Shown here piece by piece: positions 17,075 through 57,121 of a DNA stretch of 64,000 nt. The stretch covers positions 32,001-96,000 of the forward strand of contig JBHLMN010000016.1 of assembly GCA_048938105.1 (NCBI GenBank). The letters are read 5' to 3'. The notes beneath the pieces are model-generated. The model was not told the origin of the DNA and searched no databases. It saw nothing but the letters and a program-made list of their open reading frames with translations. Source of the stretch: Promethearchaeota archaeon. Its GTDB lineage: Archaea > Asgardarchaeota > Heimdallarchaeia > Hodarchaeales > Hodarchaeaceae. Position 1 is the first letter of the stretch, and each line of letters starts with the position of its first letter. A program made the position numbers and the translations under genes.

Positions 17075-17176
17075 TTTCTCTGTTTATCAAGAATTCAAAG
17101 TCTATTTTATGATTGAGATAAACCTAAATGATAAAATATGATTAATCATTCGCCTTAAAGATGTATCTGATCTCAT

Positions 17177-17257
17177 ACATTCGCTGTATGATGATGTTAT
17201 CCCCGGATGAGTTGTGTATCAACAATGAATATATGAAGAGCCGTCTGAAGTGAATGT
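17177..17257 (+). ncRNA. box C/D guide sRNA targeting the 23S rRNA peptidyl-transferase region
   Basis: 9-bp terminal stem ACATTCGCT/AGTGAATGT; box C ATGATGA (17188-94); guide TGTTATCCCCGG; D' ATGA; GTTG/CAAC stem; C'-like ATGAATA; guide GAAGAGCCG; box D CTGA (17245-48). Confidence 0.85.
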
Positions 17258-17300
17258 TCTTGATTTATGAGGTTTTAGTAAAAGTAAGAGAGGAAAAAAG

Positions 17301-40457: not shown

Positions 40458-41975
40458 CTAAATGACTAATTTAGTTAAAGCATTTTTAACAAAAATGTAG
40501 GTAACAAGAAATAAAACAAATTTTGATAATCTAAAGATTTCTTTCCAAGGGATTACACCAATTTTTTCAAATTTTTTATTATTAACTCTCTTAATTGGTA
40601 AAATACTAATTACAAGGGCCATAACAAAATAAATCAACTCATATACATAATTATTCATTACTATGGACGATTGAGTAAATGAATGGTTTAACATATTTGA
40701 AACAAGGAGAAAAAATGGACTAGCTCCTGCAATAAAAGCTAATGAAATTAATGCAAGCACTTGGACAATGTTACCATGTAATTTTGCTGCTTCGAGTCGG
40801 GAAATACCTTTATTCAACAAATCATTAGTCTTATTTAATTCTTCGGTAATTGTTAATAATTTCTTACCAGCAATGAGAGTATCAATCATGGAAAATTTTT
40901 TTATCAACAAGATAAGATGCAAGATTCTTTCAGGAAAAAATTCTGCTAAGAAAGTTGGATTTATATCATTTTCTTCTGATATTCCTAGCCTAAATTGAGC
41001 ATATTTTTCTAATTTCTTAGTGGAATAGTCTTGCTGTGAACGATTTAGAATAATATTTAAAGCATTATTTAAGCTTTTATCGAACGAATTTCCCCTTAAC
41101 AGGTTCTCTGAAAGAATGACCAAAAGCTCTAAGGATTTTTTGTCATGAGATAGAAAAATCTGATTATTTTGGGAAAATAGTGTAAGGTGTCTTTCTGGGT
41201 GGATGAAAAATGATCCAATCACTATACTGATGATGATTAAAAGTCCGAAAAAGACACTCATGTTCCCAGAGATCAATAAAAAACATAAAATAACTGGAGG
41301 GCTTAAAAATATGATTCCAGATGATAATGAGGCCCAAGAGTCAATTTTATCAGTTTCTTCTGTTATTTGTTCGGAAATTCTGCTAAGAATCCTGTTTTTT
41401 GAAAGAAGAGCAATATTTTTGCCATTTTCCCAAATATCCAAAATATAAAGAAAAAGCGTCTGTATGTTCCCATGGAGATATTTTTTCATTTGAGTTTTTA
41501 AGGAAAATTCAAGGGGATTTCCGAAATGTGTTAAAATCATAGCTTTTTCGAATATCTTTGAGAATACGGGATAATTACTCAAGATAATAAATTTTGTTGA
41601 TTCTTTTAGGGAAGAAGATGTATCTAATATTACTAATAGCTCATTGATAACAAAATATCCTATTGTTTCAATGGATGTACAATATTCTTTAAATTGAAGA
41701 AAAATTATGTAATTAAATAGCCTTAAAGATACAATAATTAATACGAGCTCGATTATAATAACTTCAAGGAAAATATTCTTCATTATAAATATTTGAAATC
41801 CTACGAAAAAAAGAGATAAAGTGAAAAACGCAAAGGTAATCCAGAAAATATCTTTTTTACTTATTATATACTTTGACTCAAAATAATCCCCGAAATTATA
41901 GTGATTGAAGAAATCAAAATTCCCAAATAGTATAGAATGGAAATATTTCAATGTAATACCAATTTTCCTTGGCAT
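40458..41975 (-). CDS. TadB/TadC (T2SS F)-like pilus platform membrane protein
   Basis: Two repeats of cytoplasmic helical domain plus TM segments (LILSENLLRGNSFDKSL; HFGNPLE); divergent from the secretion ATPase. Confidence 0.6.
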   Translation of the reverse strand: MPRKIGITLKYFHSILFGNFDFFNHYNFGDYFESKYIISKKDIFWITFAFFTLSLFFVGFQIFIMKNIFLEVIIIELVLIIVSLRLFNYIIFLQFKEYCTSIETIGYFVINELLVILDTSSSLKESTKFIILSNYPVFSKIFEKAMILTHFGNPLEFSLKTQMKKYLHGNIQTLFLYILDIWENGKNIALLSKNRILSRISEQITEETDKIDSWASLSSGIIFLSPPVILCFLLISGNMSVFFGLLIIISIVIGSFFIHPERHLTLFSQNNQIFLSHDKKSLELLVILSENLLRGNSFDKSLNNALNIILNRSQQDYSTKKLEKYAQFRLGISEENDINPTFLAEFFPERILHLILLIKKFSMIDTLIAGKKLLTITEELNKTNDLLNKGISRLEAAKLHGNIVQVLALISLAFIAGASPFFLLVSNMLNHSFTQSSIVMNNYVYELIYFVMALVISILPIKRVNNKKFEKIGVIPWKEIFRLSKFVLFLVTYIFVKNALTKLVI

Positions 41976-42266
41976 ACCTCTACACCAATATTTTAGGAGA
42001 TTCCTTAATTTTAAACGATGAAAATAATAAACACAATTGAATTTTCAAACATTAAATCATCATAATGATTCACCTTCCTTTATTTAAACCCGAGAATCCT
42101 AAAAGAAAAAATCCGATCTAATTTGGATTAAATCTTCACAGTCGTAACATACTTTACGTGCTAAAACAAAGTAGATCAATTCAATCTTTACTTCTCTGTA
42201 TTTATTTCAATTTAGTTTGACTTGTGATAAACTTGGGTTATTTTAATTTCATATACAAAATCAATT

Positions 42267-42590
42267 TTGGTAATAGAATTGACTGTCCTTCAAACACATA
42301 AAACTGTCATTGAAACTACCTGTCCGATTTGTGGAAAGAATGAATCAATACTAGTAACTGCATCTGAATTGAATATTGCAAGAGAACAACATTCTCTTAT
42401 CACTAAAGCATTGACTCACTTAAAAGAAGGCCATATTCTTACTCTTTATATTGACGGGCAAGGAATTGTCCGAAGAAAATATTGTTTTGATATTGCAGAA
42501 CATAAAGCTAATTCTTTTAAAGGATCTCTTCCTAAAAAATTGAATTTAATTTTTGATCAAATGATTCAGGAGTCGAAGAAACAAAAATAA
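42267..42590 (+). CDS. hypothetical protein with CxxC and H..GH..TLYID motifs
   Basis: ORF directly upstream of the ATPase, same strand. Confidence 0.6.
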   Translation: MVIELTVLQTHKTVIETTCPICGKNESILVTASELNIAREQHSLITKALTHLKEGHILTLYIDGQGIVRRKYCFDIAEHKANSFKGSLPKKLNLIFDQMIQESKKQK

Positions 42591-42622
42591 AACCAAATAT
42601 TTTCTTTTAATGGAGCGAAAAA

Positions 42623-44092
42623 ATGAATCAATCGTTAAATATAGACTTAAATCTAAATCAAAATGAAGAAATTATGATAGATTCCTATTCATTTCATTGT
42701 TATATAGCTTCGATAATTAAAATACCACACAAAGAAGAATACGTGTATCAGGTACGATATGATCCTTTAACTTATAATCACTTGAAGGATTTCAGTCATT
42801 ATGAAAAGGAGGTTCATTTCTTTCTTAAAGAATTTGTTTTGCACCAAAATGATTTCTGTACATTTGATCAGCTTTACACTTCCTTATCAAAAGCTACTTA
42901 TAAGGAATTACAAATCCCTAAACAATTTCTAATCCCCGTTATGTTCCGTAAGCTCAATCTTGAAAAAATTGGTCCATTATTAATTGAAGATCAGATTGAC
43001 GAAATATATTTAGATTCGAGTAAGAAGAATCTCTATATAGATCATTCCCGGCATGGGAGGTGTGCTACCTCAATACAGCTTTCGAAGGAAGAAATCGAAT
43101 CTTTTGTTCATCGAATTGCACTGGAAAACGATTTTTCTCTAAATCAAAACAATCCAACAATGAAAGCAGATTTTGTATCTAAATTGTTCCATTCCCGGAT
43201 CACAGTAGATATTCCTCCTCTTATTATCGATGATATTCACATTGATATCAGGAAATTTCATTCAAAGATATTGAGAATTTCAGATCTGATTAAGAATGGA
43301 AGTCTTACCCTAAGTCAAGCAATTTTCTTAGTATATTTAATTCAAAATCAGGTTTCGATTTCAATAATTGGGCCTCCAAATTCAGGGAAAACAACATTGC
43401 AAAATGCTTTGATTGAATATATTCCTCCTCATTTTCGACTTCTATCAGTGGAAGATGTTTTAGAAACCGCTGAAATAAGACGTGGAAACACTGTTAGATT
43501 CCGTTTAGGTTATGATCCGCATGAAAGCATGATTTTTTCAAAATCGCTTGAAGTCCAAAAAATACTACATAGAAGTCCAGATTTTATTAATTTAGGGGAG
43601 CTTTCCACAAAAAATCATTTTACTGCTTTTTTGAATGTTCTATCTGTTGGAATCCCATCAATTCAAACAATACATGGAAGAACTCCAGAATTTCTTTTCG
43701 TACGTTTGAGAGACATATATAACATTCCTCTAGAACTCTTAAAAGCTTCATTTCCTCATATTTTCATCGAGTTGAACGTTTCTTGGATCAAAAATAAGAA
43801 AAAACGTACAATTATGCGGATTGCAGAATTAACAAATGAAGGTGAAATTACTAATTTGTCTAACAAAGCAATCGAATCATTTGTCGCCTATCCTAATACT
43901 GAATCAGGAATTTTCACACTTGCTTATCTGATTAAGAACAATCAGACTAATCTCAATGATTTTATTGTTAATATCCAAAAAACAGCCTTATTATTGTCTG
44001 GAAACTCGTTTCATAAAGAAATTAAACAAGAAGCGGTTGATTTCAATCATCGGAATAAGAATGAAAATAAGATTGTAAAAAATAAAAACTAA
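42623..44092 (+). CDS. TadA/VirB11/FlaI-type secretion ATPase
   Basis: IDIRK, Walker A GPPNSGKTT, Asp box VEDVLE, PDFINLGE, His box TIHG. Confidence 0.9.
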   Translation: MNQSLNIDLNLNQNEEIMIDSYSFHCYIASIIKIPHKEEYVYQVRYDPLTYNHLKDFSHYEKEVHFFLKEFVLHQNDFCTFDQLYTSLSKATYKELQIPKQFLIPVMFRKLNLEKIGPLLIEDQIDEIYLDSSKKNLYIDHSRHGRCATSIQLSKEEIESFVHRIALENDFSLNQNNPTMKADFVSKLFHSRITVDIPPLIIDDIHIDIRKFHSKILRISDLIKNGSLTLSQAIFLVYLIQNQVSISIIGPPNSGKTTLQNALIEYIPPHFRLLSVEDVLETAEIRRGNTVRFRLGYDPHESMIFSKSLEVQKILHRSPDFINLGELSTKNHFTAFLNVLSVGIPSIQTIHGRTPEFLFVRLRDIYNIPLELLKASFPHIFIELNVSWIKNKKKRTIMRIAELTNEGEITNLSNKAIESFVAYPNTESGIFTLAYLIKNNQTNLNDFIVNIQKTALLLSGNSFHKEIKQEAVDFNHRNKNENKIVKNKN

Positions 44093-44258
44093 GGATATTG
44101 GACTTGATCCAAAAAAAAAGAATTTTCCTTCAAAATATGGATATATTTCTTTAATTGAGAGGAGTAAGAAATCTGTATAATAAAAATTTCGGGACTTTAT
44201 ATGCCTTGGTTAATCTTTAGTGTTAGATCTTTTATTTTATTGAGAATTAGGGATAATC

Positions 44259-44457
44259 TTGATTCATTTCCATCAGGCTTTAATAATAGGTGAAAAGAAC
44301 GATTTATTCTCTCCAAACATTCTAGAATATCTACAGGAGCTTTCAAAGCAGCTGATTGAATCAATATCATTTCTATTCCCTACATTACTTAGCATTGCAA
44401 TTGTAACAGTAAATCTTTCTTTGATTTCAGGAACACTCGTTTACCTCTTAGATTATA
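44259..44457 (+). pseudogene. 5' half of a small membrane-protein gene interrupted by the IscB element
   Basis: Hydrophobic ORF runs into the GTCAA element end; joins in frame with 51287-51612. Confidence 0.7.
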
Positions 44458-44730
44458 GTCAATCACCCCGAGCTCAAACCTCAGGGCTTTTTCGGTGACG
44501 AGAAAGAGTAATTGGTTGATTAGCCACAGAAAAGTTGAAGGAATAGGTAATTATGAAATCAACAGTATCTAAGTTATCAGGAGAGTTCAGGAACGCACCA
44601 AAAGATGCTTCTCTAGTCTCTTGCTCTGCAAATGAGGGGTTAAACAGAGAGGAAACTCTCAGTGCTCCTCATACAGTACTGCCTGATAACCTTGGCGAAG
44701 AGAACCAACTCCGTAATACTACGGAGAGAC
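44458..44730 (+). ncRNA. omegaRNA (HEARO-like) scaffold of IscB
   Basis: GTCAATCACC...GGTTGATTAGCC first stem; GATGCTTCTCTAGTC..GCTCT; TTAAACAG-GAGGAAACTC-CAGTG; GATAACCTTGGCGAAG; terminal hairpin CTCCGTA..TACGGAG. Confidence 0.85.
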
Positions 44731-44735
44731 AGAAC

Positions 44736-45962
44736 ATGAGTGTATCTGTCAATGTCTATGTACTGAGTATGAGAGGGTCACCTCTCATGCCAACCACACC
44801 TCGAAAAGCGCGTCTATTGTTGAAACAAGGAAAAGCATCTGTTGTTCAACGAACACCATTTACAATTCAACTCAAATATGCTACAGGTGAAACTACGCAG
44901 CCCATCACCTTGGGAATTGATGCGGGGTATTCTACCATTGGTTTTTCCGCAATTGCAGCAAAAAAAGAACTTATTGCAGGTGAAGTAGTATTAAGAACAG
45001 ATATCTCAAAAAGATTAGCCCAAAGACGCATGTATCGTAGAAACAGACGTAGTTATCTTTGGTATCGAAAGCCCCGTTTTCTTAACCGTACTCATGCCAA
45101 AAAAGAGGGATGGTTTGCTCCAAGTATTCAACACAAATTCGATTCTCATATTCGATTAGTGAAAAAAATTCAGAAGATTTTATCTATTACAAATATCATT
45201 GTTGAAGTGGCATCATTTGATACTCTAAAGATGCAGAATCCAGAGATAAACGGGATAGAATATCAACAAGGAGAATTACAAGGTTATGAAGTAAGGGAAT
45301 ATCTACTTGTAAAATATGGAAGAAAATGTGTCTATTGTGGAAAATCTGGCATTCCCTTAGAAGTAGAACATATAAAACCGAAATCGAGAGGAGGGTCAAA
45401 TCGTGTTTCAAACTTGGCAATTTCGTGCCAAAAATGCAACCAAAAAAAAGGTGATCAAACTGCTGCTGAATTTGGACATTCTAAAGTGCAAAAACAGGCC
45501 AAGCGACCCTTAAAAGCTCCCACATTCATGAATAATGTTCGTCAAAAAATCGTGGCTAAATTGAACAGTCAATATACTTATGGTTTCATCACAAAGTATA
45601 ATCGAATTAAACTCGGTTTAAACAAGTCTCATATTAATGATGCATATGTCATTGCTGGAGGGAAATTATGTCAACAACGAACTAAACCATTTTATGTTAA
45701 TCAAATCCGACGTAATAATCGTAGTCTACAATTAAATCGGAAAGGATTTAGAGTATCTATCCGAAAGTCTCACTATCCTTTTCAACCCAATGACCTCGTC
45801 AAAGTAAAAACAACCAATTCTCTATATCGAGTTAAAGGAACTCATTGCAAAGGGACACGGATTATGGTACAGTCACTCAATTTAGTTAAGAAAAAGATTA
45901 GTTTAAGTTTCAAGAATATTGAGTTGGTCACCTATGGTAAGGGATTGTCATTTAAATATTAA
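44736..45962 (+). CDS. iscB: RNA-guided endonuclease IscB
   Basis: PLMP, RuvC-I GIDAG, Arg-rich bridge helix, RuvC-II VEVASFD, HNH (EHIKPKSRGGSN...C..CN), RuvC-III SHINDA; all catalytic motifs intact. Confidence 0.96.
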   Translation: MSVSVNVYVLSMRGSPLMPTTPRKARLLLKQGKASVVQRTPFTIQLKYATGETTQPITLGIDAGYSTIGFSAIAAKKELIAGEVVLRTDISKRLAQRRMYRRNRRSYLWYRKPRFLNRTHAKKEGWFAPSIQHKFDSHIRLVKKIQKILSITNIIVEVASFDTLKMQNPEINGIEYQQGELQGYEVREYLLVKYGRKCVYCGKSGIPLEVEHIKPKSRGGSNRVSNLAISCQKCNQKKGDQTAAEFGHSKVQKQAKRPLKAPTFMNNVRQKIVAKLNSQYTYGFITKYNRIKLGLNKSHINDAYVIAGGKLCQQRTKPFYVNQIRRNNRSLQLNRKGFRVSIRKSHYPFQPNDLVKVKTTNSLYRVKGTHCKGTRIMVQSLNLVKKKISLSFKNIELVTYGKGLSFKY

Positions 45963-47085
45963 TTGGTTAATTATGAGTTATACCACCTTTGGCTCTTATA
46001 GAGATCCCATTTCCATTAAGTAATGCCTCTTATTCTACCAATGTAGTCTTAACTTTTGCTTAAAAACCCGAGAAAAACTCCTGGAATGCCCTTTTTTATG
46101 CCCTTATTTTATAGATTTCCCCTCTAGGACTCTCACTGAATTTCCATACGAGAAAAAATGCCTGAACCTTGAATTTCTTATTTAGTGAAAAAGAGTTGCT
46201 TCATTGAGGTCGTCAAATTAGTCCATTGACGACATGAACACATTATAATTGCTTCCTCACTATTCTACTGTAGAAGAGATGTAATCAACCTTATTGGGCA
46301 TAAAAGTATCTCCCTCCTGAAATAATTGTCATTAAGGAGGAATAGTTAAATTCATTAAGGAAGAACCATCTAATACAATCAGGAAGACAAGTTTTTTCTT
46401 CACACAAAGGCTATTGAAAGAAGAAACTCGCCTCCAAGAATTAAGATAGTAGAGATTGACTCTTCCCAAAGAATTCAATCCTCTTTTATCTTTTTTCTCA
46501 GTTTGTGTAAGCTTCCTTAGATAAAATTAAAAAAGAATTCTTACCATTTTTCTTCTAATCTATGATATCTAGAATAGCCCAAACTCTCTTTCTAACATCT
46601 TTGAAATTTAAGAAAATCAAAATGGATAATGATTTCCGCTGTAAAATCATGAAATATATGGCAAGCTATTCTTTTTATCGATACGTTGAAAAAAGGTTTT
46701 ATAGAATAAATAATAACCCTTACATACTCTAAAATAATGAATAAGCATACCTCGCTAGTTTGAATAATTGTCAAAACGATTTAATTACTCTTAGTATCAC
46801 AAACAACGTTAAACAAGCTAGATTAAGTATCATCGCCTCTCTCGGTTGTGTAAAGAAATCAGAACGAGATGGAAGAATCACATTACATCTTATACTATAT
46901 AATATTTGCATAGCAGAAACAACAGGTAGAGAAACATTTTCAAAATAAGAAATCCCTAAGAATGAAATCGTACTAATACGATATGTCACATATTTAAAAA
47001 TTGATATAGTACTAAGCCCCACACAGTTCAGAATAATGAAAACAAACTAATCATATGATATGTAAAGGCATAGGAGGAGAAATAT

Positions 47086-47586
47086 ATGGTATTAACTTAC
47101 GAACCTGAACTATCCAAAATAAATGACCTCTTAAATTATGGAAGGTTGTATAATAACACGTTAATAGCTATTAATCGTATTATACATGGTCTTGAACTGA
47201 ATGAGAGGCATCAAGATTCTTTGAACTCCATGAAAAATCTTTTTGATGAAGTGATAAGAGGAGAAGGACAAAACATCGAAATTAAATTGAATAGAGCCCC
47301 AAATAATGTTTCCAGCCTCAATGCTTACAGAAGAATGACTTTGTTGAGCTTACGTGATATTCTAAGAGATGTTAAAGAAGAAAATGAAGTTAAAGAATAT
47401 CTCATGGGACTTAGAGATACATTAATCAGTTTTATAAGTAATACATTAGATTTAGAAACAGAAGAAAACATAAATTCGCTAATGAAATTTCTAGGAATTT
47501 CATCAGAAACCTGTCACAAGGAAATTGAGAGACTGAGGATCGAGGAGGTTGAATTGAAGCCTTGGGAGACGAGAGAAGAGATTTAG
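47086..47586 (+). CDS. hypothetical alpha-helical protein, first gene of the cargo operon
   Basis: AGGAGGA RBS; overlaps the next ORF. Confidence 0.8.
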   Translation: MVLTYEPELSKINDLLNYGRLYNNTLIAINRIIHGLELNERHQDSLNSMKNLFDEVIRGEGQNIEIKLNRAPNNVSSLNAYRRMTLLSLRDILRDVKEENEVKEYLMGLRDTLISFISNTLDLETEENINSLMKFLGISSETCHKEIERLRIEEVELKPWETREEI

Positions 47587-49169
47587 CTACAATTGAATCT
47601 TGCATTCAACAAATAAATTTCTTTGTGGATGAAATCTATCTACTAGAAAAGGCCTCCTTAATTAATTATCAAAGATTCTATCAGCTTTTAAATAAAATAT
47701 GCAGAATTATCCTTAATCAACTAGAGGACTTGAAAACTGAAAGAGGTGATCTGGAAGAGTTAGAAGAAAATAATCATATTACGAAAGTAAAAAGAACCAT
47801 TATCATTCAAGCAAAAAACCTACTTGAAACTGTTTCACAACTTCAATGGTACCTTAAGCAGCTATCTTTAGGTACAGGGAGAGAAGAAAACATCCCCGTT
47901 GAATTTATTTTTCCTCTAGAGCCTATCATTGAACATTTTATTGAAGAAAATTTGATTTTTCTTATTGCATCCTGGGAACGTAATTATAAGATCGTAGATT
48001 TTTCTAATGTGTTGAGCCGCATTTTTAAGAATGATAAGGTGATTCTAGACGAGATTAATCACTTCAAAGATCATATCATAATTATCAATCTTCCATGTGC
48101 ATGGAAAGAAGCAGCTTTAATGCATCCATTACTTTTTCATGAGATCGGTCATTTATTGATTAATCTTAATCCTCAAGGGTATAAAGAAAATTTCATTATG
48201 TCAATCGATAATAAAAAGATTGAAAGGATTCTAAAAAGAATTCGATCTGATTTTTCCAATAAGAACTCTAAGGTACTGAAAGATCTTCAATATTTCATTA
48301 ATCAAAGTATTTTTCAGGTAGATATCGTAACAACATCATTGAATTGGTATAATGAGATTCTTTGTGATTTTTTTGGCTTTTCATTAATGAATCTTGGATT
48401 TATATTCGCTTTCACATCATTTTTTAGAACATCGGCCAGTTTAACATCGTGTGGACCGACTCATCCCCCAGGATTCTTAAGATTTGGATTACTTTACTAT
48501 AAGTTATCTAAAGATAAAAGGATTCTCGATTTTTTGAAAACTATATCACCTGATGTTTATAATCTTCTTAAAGATTCAGCTACAAGATGGGAATACTATA
48601 AATCAAAATTAACTTATCTTAATCAGGCTTGTGTCGAAGTTTTAGAGAATTATAAAGAACACCTTCTTGACTCAAACTTGCATGAAATGAGAGGTTTGAG
48701 TATTGAGGAATTTATATACAACCATGATAGGTTTATAAAGTATAAAGACAAATTGTTTGAACTTTTACTTAATTTTATACCAATTAACGAAATAATAATA
48801 AGTGAAACTGAATCCTACCAATGTAATCTAGCATTAATTATTAATGTTGGTTGGTTCTTTTATTATAATAAAGAATTTGACTTATTTAAAGAAAAAGCTC
48901 TAGAACATAAAGAAAAACCTGAATCACGTTACTCAGGGTCTTTAGGTCCAGGGATTAGTCAAATTCACAGAGATAAGGAAATTCCAAAGCTTCATGTGGC
49001 TTTTGATATTTCAAACAACGAAAAATTTGAAAATAACTTTTACAAGGAAAGGCCTAGTCCTTTCTCTTTTTTAAATTGCATTATAAACAAATCGATTCAG
49101 CTTTCTTTCATCCAGGAATATCTAAAAGATATTTGGGAGAGAAAACAAGATGTTTCTACCAAGAATTGA
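47562..49169 (+). CDS. HEXXH zincin-like protein (putative metallopeptidase or sensor)
   Basis: LFHEIGH, WYNEILCD third-ligand motif, THPP..LR. Confidence 0.7.
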   Translation: MGDERRDLATIESCIQQINFFVDEIYLLEKASLINYQRFYQLLNKICRIILNQLEDLKTERGDLEELEENNHITKVKRTIIIQAKNLLETVSQLQWYLKQLSLGTGREENIPVEFIFPLEPIIEHFIEENLIFLIASWERNYKIVDFSNVLSRIFKNDKVILDEINHFKDHIIIINLPCAWKEAALMHPLLFHEIGHLLINLNPQGYKENFIMSIDNKKIERILKRIRSDFSNKNSKVLKDLQYFINQSIFQVDIVTTSLNWYNEILCDFFGFSLMNLGFIFAFTSFFRTSASLTSCGPTHPPGFLRFGLLYYKLSKDKRILDFLKTISPDVYNLLKDSATRWEYYKSKLTYLNQACVEVLENYKEHLLDSNLHEMRGLSIEEFIYNHDRFIKYKDKLFELLLNFIPINEIIISETESYQCNLALIINVGWFFYYNKEFDLFKEKALEHKEKPESRYSGSLGPGISQIHRDKEIPKLHVAFDISNNEKFENNFYKERPSPFSFLNCIINKSIQLSFIQEYLKDIWERKQDVSTKN

Positions 49170-49668
49170 AATAATAAATCGTATTTTTAATGAACAAGAT
49201 TTTAATAAACGAATAATAGTAACACCCTTTTTTGACCCTGATGAGCAAATTGGTGATGGTACTCTTGATCTGAGGTTAGGTTTTTCATTTTTGAAAATGT
49301 CTCGTGAATATATTCCTTATGTTAATGTTTTGGATGAGGATGTATACACTAAAATTGATTCTTCTCATAAAAAGATTCTTTATTATCCTCGTTGGACCAC
49401 AAAAGAAATAACTCTTCATCCTGGTGACTTTTTATTAGGTGCTACTCTTGAATACGTTAAACTTCCAGATGATTTAATGGCACTCATTTCAGGACGTTCC
49501 TCGTGGGCTCGATTAGGAATCGTTATTCAGGCAACTGGAGGTGTTATTCATCCCAATTTTAACGGTACTATAACTTTTGAATTAGCTAATGTTAGTTCCA
49601 TGCCTGTTAACCTCTACCCTGGGATGAGAATTGCACAATTAGTATTTTCAAGTTGTTCCAATGATTAA
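49150..49668 (+). CDS. dcd: dCTP deaminase (trimeric dUTPase fold) lacking the C-terminal lid
   Basis: LDLRLG, LHPGDFLLGATLEYVKLP, GRSSWARLG, IHPNFNGTITFELAN, LYPGMRIAQLVF, then stop. Confidence 0.9.
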   Translation: MFLPRIEIINRIFNEQDFNKRIIVTPFFDPDEQIGDGTLDLRLGFSFLKMSREYIPYVNVLDEDVYTKIDSSHKKILYYPRWTTKEITLHPGDFLLGATLEYVKLPDDLMALISGRSSWARLGIVIQATGGVIHPNFNGTITFELANVSSMPVNLYPGMRIAQLVFSSCSND

Positions 49669-49901
49669 TATGGATTATAATGATATAGACAATCTTTATT
49701 CTTGTGGTATGGATGGTTGAAACTCATTTAATAAAAATAAGTATTAATATCGAATAAATCGATTTTGTCATTTTTTTCTGATAAATATTATCTATTTATT
49801 GTGTAGCTAATACTACATAAAATTGCTAATATTGTAAATAACTTTACAAATAACTATATACCCACGATTTGGAAGGGTGAGGCAAATGTGTTTAAAACTA
49901 A

Positions 49902-51242
49902 ATGATAAAGGATGAAACTGTAAATGGATGCAGGAAAGTGAAGAGAAAATTTCTACTTATTTTCCCAGAATGGCCGCCTGCCATTGGAGGGATGCAAACT
50001 CATGCTATTTGTTTATCTAATTATCTTTTTTCTAATGGTCATAAAATACTTGTTGTTACATACAAACCAAATCATGCACAATATTCAAAACAAGAATATT
50101 TACAATCTGATAAACTCTTTAACTTCCCTGTTATAAGAATTTTATCAAGAATCACTTATTATCAAAACCTGAGAATAATTCAAAAGATTTCAAGAAAATT
50201 CAAACCAGATCTGATTTATTCAAGTAATATTTTTTATGGAATTCTTAAAGATTGGACTGGTAAACCCACAGTATGTCGATCAGTCGGAAATGATATCTTA
50301 AGGCCTTGGATTCCTTATCCTTTTAATTTTGGATCAAGATTATTGTACAACAAGGCCATAGAGGAAATTTTAGTAAAAATCTTTTTTAAATATTTAAGAG
50401 AGTTAGACATATTCCCTTTTTTAAGCTCTATTTTTCGTAAAAGACGATTAAATATTACTATACAATCTGCAAGATCAGCAGATACAATTTTACCTAATAG
50501 TCACTTTACAACGAGAATTCTTGTTGGATTTGGTGTGAATTCAGCAATTATAAAACCTATAATTGGGGGGGTTGATGTTAATTTCTTTAGAAGAGAAAAA
50601 TCAATTGATAAAAGGCCATTACGAAAAAAATTAAATTTACCAGAAGATAAAATTTTATTGTTAACTGTTTGTAGATTAGTCCAAAAGAAGCGAGTAGATC
50701 TTTTGATTAGAACTATTAAAACCGCTATCTCTAAAGATAAAAATTGGCATTTAGTAATTATTGGAAATGGTAAACGACGTAAGAAATTAATAAAATTAAC
50801 CCATGACCTTGAATTAACGGAATTTATAACTTTTATAGGCTCAATACCATATTATTCAATACCACAATATTATTGGACTGCAGATTTGTTTATTCTTGCT
50901 AGTAAAATCTTCTATCAATCTAAGACAAAAACTTATGATGTCGAAACGATGGGTAGGGTATTATGTGAAGCCAATGCAGCAGGAGTTCCAGTACTCGCCT
51001 CAAAAAGTGGTGGTATTCCCTCTATTATAACTAATAAGAAAAATGGTTTGCTTTTTAACACAGATGATCAGACTGTTCTTTGTGAGAAAATTACTTACAT
51101 GCTTAACAATAAAAAAATGCTTGAGGATTTTAGTCGAAATGGATTGTATTATGCTGAAGAGAAATTTGATTGGTCTATAGTGTTTCAAAAACATGAAGAA
51201 ATATTTGAAAATCTGTTAAATGGGAAAAGAACTGGTACCTAA
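49902..51242 (+). CDS. GT4 family glycosyltransferase
   Basis: WPPAIGGMQT, VCRLVQKKRVD, ETMGRVLCEANAAGVPV..SGGIP. Confidence 0.92.
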   Translation: MIKDETVNGCRKVKRKFLLIFPEWPPAIGGMQTHAICLSNYLFSNGHKILVVTYKPNHAQYSKQEYLQSDKLFNFPVIRILSRITYYQNLRIIQKISRKFKPDLIYSSNIFYGILKDWTGKPTVCRSVGNDILRPWIPYPFNFGSRLLYNKAIEEILVKIFFKYLRELDIFPFLSSIFRKRRLNITIQSARSADTILPNSHFTTRILVGFGVNSAIIKPIIGGVDVNFFRREKSIDKRPLRKKLNLPEDKILLLTVCRLVQKKRVDLLIRTIKTAISKDKNWHLVIIGNGKRRKKLIKLTHDLELTEFITFIGSIPYYSIPQYYWTADLFILASKIFYQSKTKTYDVETMGRVLCEANAAGVPVLASKSGGIPSIITNKKNGLLFNTDDQTVLCEKITYMLNNKKMLEDFSRNGLYYAEEKFDWSIVFQKHEEIFENLLNGKRTGT

Positions 51243-51286
51243 TGATTATTCAACATATTACTTTCTTTCGGTGAATAAAGATTAGA

Positions 51287-51612
51287 ATGAGGAAAATGGA
51301 AAAATGATGATTCTTAGATCATTTATAATTCTAATACTCTTAATCTCTATTTTTAATCTAAAATTTCCTAGGTCAACGGTGGTTATGGAACCATTTGAGG
51401 GTTTTTTTCCTTTAACTTCATTTATCACATCATATTTATTGTTTATTTTTGCAGTATTATCTCTTATAGTCTTCATTGGAAATTTAGGCCTTTATCTCCT
51501 TACCTCAGATTCAGAACGGATCAAGAACTTGAAAAAAAGCACATTCTGCCTTTTCTGTATTATTTTACCATTAGGTTTTCAATTTCCACATATGCCGATA
51601 TGGAAAATGTGA
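51287..51612 (+). pseudogene. 3' half of the interrupted membrane-protein gene
   Basis: Frame continues ..N-EENGKMMILRS.. from the 44259 ORF once 44458-51286 is removed. Confidence 0.65.
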
Positions 51613-51616
51613 TTTT

Positions 51617-51805
51617 ATGCCGAATGAGATTCTAGTAATTATAATATCAGCTTGTTTGGATATATTTTCATCGGAACAATTTAGGGCATTTTTAATAGCT
51701 CTTGGGTCTATAATCTATGCTCCCACTGGCAGTCGAATTGGAAAATATTGTCTATTGTTTGGTCTTTTCATTTTTACACTCAATAATCTAATAATAGGCA
51801 TTTGA
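51617..51805 (+). CDS. small 2-helix membrane protein (VirB2/CedA1 pilin-like?)
   Basis: FLIALGSIIYAPTGSRIGKYCLLFG helix-turn-helix; 4 nt after the previous gene. Confidence 0.5.
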   Translation: MPNEILVIIISACLDIFSSEQFRAFLIALGSIIYAPTGSRIGKYCLLFGLFIFTLNNLIIGI

Positions 51806-51932
51806 AGAAGTAAATCAGTAGTTCTCAATTTAACAGATATTACAGTTTATATGACATTTTTTTTACATCAATATTCTTGGGAGTTTTTTAAGATCCTCTT
51901 AATTTGATAGTGGAGCGAAGAAACAATTTTGA

Positions 51933-57013: not shown

Positions 57014-57121
57014 TGGGCCCACCCGGATTTGAACCGGGGATCTCTCGGTTATCAGCATCGCCCGCTCTGATGAATACCCTTCAGAACGCCGAGCGCTTTA
57101 ACCAGGCTAAGCCATGGGCCC
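57014..57121 (-). tRNA. tRNA-Ile(GAT) with a 33-nt intron in the anticodon stem (57057-57089, position 30/31)
   Basis: GGGCCCA/TGGGCCC acceptor; BHB CGCT/GGCG flanked by 3-nt bulges; spliced form is 75 nt with loop CT-GAT-AA. Confidence 0.9.

Follow-up and report, generated by a model that had tools for sequence, protein, structure and literature searches.

An IscB transposon of the IS200/IS605 family has split a membrane protein gene in an Asgard archaeon, and its precise junctions and the geometry of its guide and insertion motif are real. The element lies in a 64,000-nucleotide (nt) stretch of a Promethearchaeota archaeon of the order Hodarchaeales (assembly GCA_048938105.1, contig JBHLMN010000016.1, positions 32,001 to 96,000 of the forward strand); this whole stretch is called the window below, and coordinates are positions within it (Table 1). 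The 6.8-kb insertion lacks the distal end that is canonical for such elements and holds 5.3 kb of foreign DNA, the cargo, between iscB and the motif. The explanation that we favour, with about an even chance of being right, is that an IscB element inserted in the ordinary way and later lost its far end, the damage being mended on the spot, probably in the repair of a cut made by IscB.

The split gene and its empty site

When positions 44458-51286 are removed in silico, the two frames on either side fuse into a single membrane protein of 174 amino acids, so that the coordinates and the host gene reconstructed in a first-pass annotation of the window were correct, as was its view that the host is an Asgard archaeon. 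That annotation had proposed looking for the uninterrupted gene in relatives, and 18 of 20 same-genus (Hodarchaeales) genomes have it as a clear match, the right half lying inside a longer frame; wherever matches to both halves were obtained, a single open frame holds the two with 3 nt between them. Database homologs of the host protein, annotated in Hodarchaeales and related Asgard archaea, are mostly 161-176 amino acids long, and three of 101-102 amino acids may be alternative start calls. The single uninterrupted frame in relatives rules out that the two halves are separate genes. In the closest genome (G012) the empty site reads TTAGATTATA followed directly by ATGAAG, where the window has TTAGATTATA, the insertion and then ATGAGG; no base has been lost or gained, with an ambiguity of 1 nt, and the insertion adjoins a fixed motif with no loss of target bases, as is required of an IS200/IS605 insertion. 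The two halves differ from the G012 gene by 37 synonymous and 37 non-synonymous codons and are both still free of stops, which suggests that the insertion is recent. A VirB2/pilin-like identity of the host protein is a lead, from an atlas feature score of 0.84-0.89. The block 40474-51803, which comprises a TadC-like gene, the ATPase gene and the split gene, has the opposite orientation in G012 and in the further relatives compared, and no repeat was seen at its breakpoints.

The source genome is a metagenome bin, 99% complete with 7% contamination. Logan contigs from the probable source sample cross both junctions with no differences, those of a second sample cross the right junction, and pieces of cargo and flank occur at about 100% in a separate study; the listed Logan contigs include no joint of the empty site. 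It is very improbable that the contig was mis-joined, most plausibly at a 51-base-pair (bp) repeat inside the cargo, and that the true insertion is larger or otherwise arranged. This repeat is the sole branch point in Logan, where the short-word contigs break in two samples, and the contamination of the bin would also fit a mis-join; against this, both outer junctions lie within unbranched contigs, the gene halves are in the correct order and frame, and the contig ends of the assembly overlap by 77 nt, so that its word length exceeds the repeat.

The omegaRNA, IscB and the guide

The IscB module is ordinary and intact. The omegaRNA scaffold starts exactly at the first inserted base, as it does in relatives and in sibling elements of the same genome, and has the terminal GTCAA/TTGAC and the subterminal hairpin expected of an IS200/IS605 right end; iscB follows directly downstream. 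The protein has the PLMP/RRXRR N-terminus, the split RuvC and HNH domains and all catalytic residues, and scores 390 bits against NF040563. The guide of IscB derives from the upstream flank (Meers et al. 10.1101/2023.03.14.532601), and such a guide requires the orientation seen here, in which iscB and the host gene read the same way. A guide from the left flank, as the first-pass annotation had it, is supported by the empty site, which consists of the guide followed by the motif. The last 8 nt of the predicted guide flank (44450-44457) are also the left copy of an imperfect repeat found at both junctions. Elsewhere in the genome the guide finds at best a site with 4 mismatches in 16, and 9 mismatches separate it from the right junction; a promoter scan gave results at chance level. 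A second IscB gene of the same genome (L129; G000 C9:64975-66195) is frameshifted, has its own omegaRNA and belongs to a different clade.

The insertion motif

In 21 non-redundant relatives the distal end consists of a hairpin, a DNA guide, 9-13 nt and then the motif. The guide TCCT[TC]G is paired with ATGA[AG] in nine of nine cases (ATGAG in three) and TTCT[TC]G with ATAAA in twelve of twelve, these being related sequences and not independent tests. Elements of the genome itself, TnpB and mini elements, share the end type of this IscB and are followed by ATGAA (four sibling ends); the removal of one of them rejoins csaA exactly, which confirms that end. The IscB of Geobacillus stearothermophilus uses TTCAT, the reverse complement of ATGAA (Meers et al. 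10.1101/2023.03.14.532601). One C-terminal column of IscB has histidine in 10 of 12 ATGA-type proteins and phenylalanine in 14 of 16 of the ATAAA type, the window protein having His370, and the column tracks the motif at two or more points of a tree that has weak support. Taken together, the pairing of guide and motif in the clade, the sibling elements and His370 support the ATGA-type motif put forward earlier: ATGA[AG] is the insertion motif of this clade, and the TAM (transposon-adjacent motif) of the nuclease is probably of the ATGA type as well. Residue 370 (codon at about 45843) covaries with both the flanking motif and the DNA guide across relatives and is a candidate TAM-specificity switch.

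For Asgard IscB copies elsewhere, empty sites could not be fixed against this genome. A same-genus copy (L037), considered as a parallel case of a hairpin-less end beside ATGA, was dropped as it is of the Phe/ATAAA type. In another (L039, genome G004, same genus), compared with about 17165-17260 of the window, the two IscB flanks are inverted with respect to each other and have about 10 bp in common, and this copy appears to lie at an inversion breakpoint.

The missing distal end

Of 27 relatives with a recognisable canonical distal end, 26 have it no more than 103 nt past the stop codon of iscB and the remaining one has it at 320 nt. In the window it breaks off at the end of iscB, and an end with hairpin and guide, the guide being expected 9-13 nt from the motif, is absent from the whole insertion. 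Folding of the last 100 nt on the distal side is no more stable than that of shuffled sequences (z -0.4), which upholds a reservation of the first-pass annotation that there is no clear distal hairpin. A second reservation, the lack of tnpA, also holds: no Y1 TnpA was found in the bin, and only 2 of the 21 genomes of the genus have one. Past activity in this genome is evident from the sibling elements.

Both the hairpin and the guide are required in IS608 and in ISGst (ISGst: 10.1101/2023.03.14.532601), and TnpA would thus be unable to excise the 6.8-kb insertion. A cargo transposon has two functional ends enclosing its passengers, which is not found here, and none of the 27 relatives has kilobases of cargo within its ends. 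No second copy of the insertion was found in the genome itself, in 20 relatives, in 399 genomes of the phylum or in plasmids, the lineage being thinly sampled. Because one transposon end is destroyed, the insertion is probably no longer a jumping cargo carrier. The 6.8 kb had been described as an OMEGA element with cargo, and as a mobile unit this is not supported: the distal end is absent, there is a single copy, and decayed DNA of host type is included. Nor does the right junction look like a transposon end, as it resembles a repair scar more.

A hairpin at 46209-46233 followed by ATGAA was rejected as the original end of the element. It has no clade guide, the motif abuts its stem where a spacing of 9-13 nt after a guide is expected, and the 51-bp repeat, which on contig C38 occurs with no IscB, includes its left arm. 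The sequence TTTCGGTGA, common to both ends, is doubtful as a TnpA signal, its left copy being the ordinary second hairpin of the omegaRNA.

The cargo

The cargo is a mosaic, of a composition within the host range. Its first part is non-coding and homologous to a region of contig C38 that looks mobile, with which it shares the 51-bp repeat, a lead for an att-like site; beside its copy of the repeat, the C38 region has RmuC-like, restriction-like, Fic and membrane genes. The remnant of a HerA/VirB4-type ATPase-family gene and another small gene fragment come next, and then a cassette of three genes and a glycosyltransferase gene. The cargo is thus decayed in part, whereas iscB and the two halves of the host gene show no decay. 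It has no integrase or transposase and no terminal inverted repeats, and a donor was not found in 82 genomes of the class, in viral contigs or in plasmids. As to a free circle, no joint was seen in four runs and no match spans the circle junction, although contigs cannot show absence.

The gene order of the cassette is kept in homologs at about 25% identity, in which the last two genes are sometimes fused, and it occurs in unrelated contexts with no IscB; it is absent from the 20 other genomes of the genus. The conserved operon and the gene fusion support a functional module, for which a defence role is plausible; the PADLOC models gave no substantial match, and the literature search yielded no published account of an HExxH/Dcd cassette. 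The first-pass annotation had seen here a putative defence operon and a glycosyltransferase carried by an OMEGA element: the contents and the conserved candidate-defence cassette are supported, and the mobile cargo element is not. Fold searches with the zincin encoded by the second gene returned weak M48 (ZMPSTE24) matches only, a wide search being filled by helical bundles. The third gene encodes a deaminase of the Dcd fold; the defensive dCTP-depleting enzyme has a different fold. A segment like the C-terminal lid that the deaminase lacks is found inside the upstream zincin (at about residues 447-477), as it is in one homologous locus (L213), and in another genome (G076) the match to that segment lies downstream of the zincin gene, where the end of the deaminase is expected. 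Away from the insertion, a tRNA gene at 57014-57121 has an intron-like insertion of about 33 nt in its anticodon loop.

Table 1. Coordinates of the insertion, its junctions and related elements
Feature	Position	Strand	Basis or remarks
5' part of host gene (about 175 amino acids, multi-hairpin membrane protein), 66 codons	44259..44457	+	within TadA/VirB11-type ATPase locus
Flank predicted to form omegaRNA guide	44442..44457	+	position relative to HEARO start
omegaRNA scaffold (HEARO), IS200/IS605 right end, starts GTCAA	44458..44709	+	RF02033 1-211/211, 115.7 bits
iscB, 408 amino acids, intact	44736..45962	+	PLMP, RuvC D62/E157/H299/D302, HNH H212; His370 of ATGA-type IscBs
Break of canonical distal end (AATT, 45961-45964), then 8 nt and internal ATGAG at 45973	45961..45977	+	comparison with relatives
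51-bp exact repeat with C38:10987-11037 (L125)	46168..46218	.	flank about 70% similar; imperfect inverted repeat at right edge
Decayed Hodarchaeales HerA/VirB4-type ATPase-family gene fragment	46270..46450	-	internal stops
Cassette gene 1, 166 amino acids, no assigned family	47086..47586	+	counterparts upstream of zincin in L213, L226, L227, L229
Cassette gene 2, HExxH gluzincin-like, 535 amino acids	47562..49169	+	invariant H193, E194, E265, D269; insert resembling a dCTP deaminase lid at about 447-477
Cassette gene 3, Dcd-fold dCTP deaminase without C-terminal lid	49150..49668	+	PF22769, TIGR02274
GT4 glycosyltransferase	49902..51242	+	nearest homologs only 47% identical
Possible remnant of post-hairpin tail of distal end	51260..51278	+	no hairpin, guide bases altered
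Right copy of 8-nt repeat	51279..51286	+	7/8 identical to bases before TAM in empty allele; stops exactly at -8
ATGAG transposon-adjacent motif, host-derived	51287..51291	+	
3' part of host gene	51287..51612	+	own ATG at 51304, 102 amino acids, without decay
Sibling elements: TnpB elements, 430-bp mini element, solo end	G000 C39:66812-68215, C4, C14 (two), C63		same end type and ATGAA

Origin of the cargo

In the explanation that we favour, a compact non-autonomous IS200/IS605-family IscB element would first have been pasted between TATA and ATGAG by TnpA supplied in trans, a well supported step that would have left the omegaRNA end at 44458 and the ATGAG motif at the far side. The outcome of a second step is seen directly: the distal hairpin and the DNA guide are gone, and iscB is now separated from the motif by mosaic DNA of 5.3 kb. 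As a third step, we infer that the cargo was patched in at the locus after insertion, most likely when a cut that IscB itself had made in an empty allele was repaired: with the filled allele as template, copying would have switched to other DNA at the distal hairpin or close to it, and the copied product would have been joined to the TAM-side fragment, which would have retained 8 nt of protospacer after a staggered cut. Such a cut would explain the 8-nt repeat, and its single mismatch, which falls in the seed, would protect the junction from being cut again. Joining by microhomology is documented in archaea (PMC12019639), and the cut of the non-target strand by IscB has been reported at -8 (PMC12477157).

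The imperfect junction repeat, which the first-pass annotation had remarked on, is real: only 95 of the 42,663 ATGA[AG] sites of the genome (0.2%) match as well. As IS200/IS605 insertion makes no target duplication, it would be either chance or a later scar. In-place repair agrees with this repeat of 7/8 ending at -8, with the empty site that is exact in relatives, with the motif of the clade, with the missing canonical end, and with a mosaic and partly decayed cargo set between undecayed host halves and iscB.

TnpA itself may instead have captured the flank, which we consider unlikely. The donor element would have ended at about 45972 by its own ATGAG, excision would have taken place at an ATGA motif 5.3 kb further on, and the resulting 6.8-kb circle would have been pasted here, with later loss of the internal hairpin; this would be the cargo element of the first-pass annotation, now dead. 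Both junctions lie exactly at the cut positions expected of TnpA, the 8 nt between the broken end and the internal ATGAG match the tail of a same-genus element, the cargo resembles Hodarchaeales accessory DNA, and GstTnpA chose a boundary outside its element and may, according to the authors, capture flanking DNA (10.1101/2023.03.14.532601). Flank capture would explain the internal ATGAG only, which taken alone is a weak clue because ATGA[AG] occurs 24 times in the cargo, and it leaves to chance both the 7/8 repeat and the match to a distal tail just before it. Moreover, the published case concerns the other end and a short distance, a single-stranded circle of 6.8 kb is demanded, and the scarcity of TnpA in the genus and the 27 relatives with no kilobase cargo speak against it.

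An independent second insertion is likewise unlikely. Here a 5.3-kb islet or excised circle, with the 51-bp repeat as att-like core, would have integrated into or beside the distal end through recombination, whether site-specific or illegitimate, in which cutting by IscB had no part. This would explain the internal ATGAG, ATGAG standing on both flanks of the cargo, and perhaps the 51-bp site shared with the mobile-looking C38 region, and it agrees with the occurrence of the cassette away from IscB. By contrast, the 51-bp core is internal and away from the junctions, neither the recombination gene and inverted repeats nor a sequence across the putative circle junction was found in the searches described above, and a copy of host sequence exactly before the TAM is left unexplained.

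In-place repair accounts for the 8-nt repeat together with either the internal ATGAG, if the template was switched after the motif, or the tail match at 51260-51278, if the cargo replaced the hairpin. With a profile built from 6 close Asgard ends, this match ranks first among about 5,300 positions (p about 0.004 per 30 nt); a broad profile gives a p of only about 0.1. Several points weigh against repair: the internal ATGAG and the tail remnant are two parses that cannot both be simply true; all junction statistics are post hoc and come from a single locus; neither the cargo donor nor an intermediate allele was found; the cut position is taken from another IscB, by way of a review (PMC12477157); our literature search found no documented kilobase templated insertions at breaks in archaea; and the expression and activity of IscB and the omegaRNA are predicted.

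At present, transposition of the insertion by TnpA would be frozen. Read-through of the host gene should still yield an omegaRNA whose guide, with ATGA[AG], would match only empty alleles, where cutting and repair from the filled allele would copy 6.8 kb. With its nuclease intact, the insertion may thus be able to home, all 6.8 kb passing into alleles of the host gene that lack it. A stronger form, in which the locus is a natural RNA-guided cargo gene drive, seems to us rather unlikely: an IscB element deprived of its transposase end would have captured the candidate defence cassette in repairing its own cut and would spread by homing alone, the junction repeat being the scar of staggered-cut repair and the 6.8-kb block passing into empty alleles. 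A contig of sample X2 (window 51120-51879) has an identical cargo end and a host flank with 16 differences, which start 85 nt past the junction (about 3.5% divergence from 51372 on); this weak hint fits homing into a divergent allele and equally a low-depth chimera or local recombination.

Comparison with known systems

The split gene, the exact junctions and the guide/motif geometry are standard IscB biology; it is unusual that the guide and motif of an IscB enclose kilobases of cargo, that one end is destroyed and that the junction may be the scar of a cut. IscB elements are generally regarded as minimal selfish units. We found no published example of natural cargo in IscB elements, and no other cargo-laden IscB turned up. 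Accessory genes over kilobases within an intact guide/TAM frame suggest that OMEGA homing could move useful cargo with no transposase, and the way in which an Asgard archaeon repairs breaks made by IscB may be recorded in the junction. In addition, the locus provides a compact IscB of 408 amino acids with a testable TAM and a single residue (His/Phe) that tracks ATGA versus ATAA across relatives. These considerations apply to one locus, at which movement and cutting are hypothetical.

The closest likeness is with the ISGst IscB element of Geobacillus stearothermophilus, a non-autonomous ISC2/OMEGA element of the IS200/IS605 family (10.1101/2023.03.14.532601), which shares the right-end omegaRNA, the guide from the upstream flank, the orientation with the host gene, an intact IscB, a TTCAT/ATGAA-type motif at the far junction, the lack of tnpA and a scarless empty site. 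The window copy differs in that the distal hairpin and DNA guide are missing, 5.3 kb lies between iscB and the motif, the far junction has an imperfect 8-nt duplication and the motif is ATGAG. Extra DNA inside TnpA-compatible junctions is also known where GstTnpA mis-selects a boundary and in mini-transposons engineered to carry cargo (10.1101/2023.03.14.532601); the mis-selection concerned the other end, in the laboratory and with both hairpins, whereas the window case is natural, kilobases long and has one hairpin absent.

The cassette shares a dCTP deaminase with dCTP-depleting defence (Tal et al., 10.1101/2021.04.26.441389) and with housekeeping Dcd (TIGR02274), here in an accessory setting; it differs in combining a Dcd/dUTPase fold with an apparently obligate HExxH partner and a small upstream gene, and in the lack of a fitting PADLOC model. 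Finally, the proposed homing resembles transposon restorative homing and the TnpB gene drive (PMC13565253; PMC11870625), in which an empty allele is cut under RNA guidance and repaired from the filled one, except that the window element would carry along three cassette genes and a glycosyltransferase.

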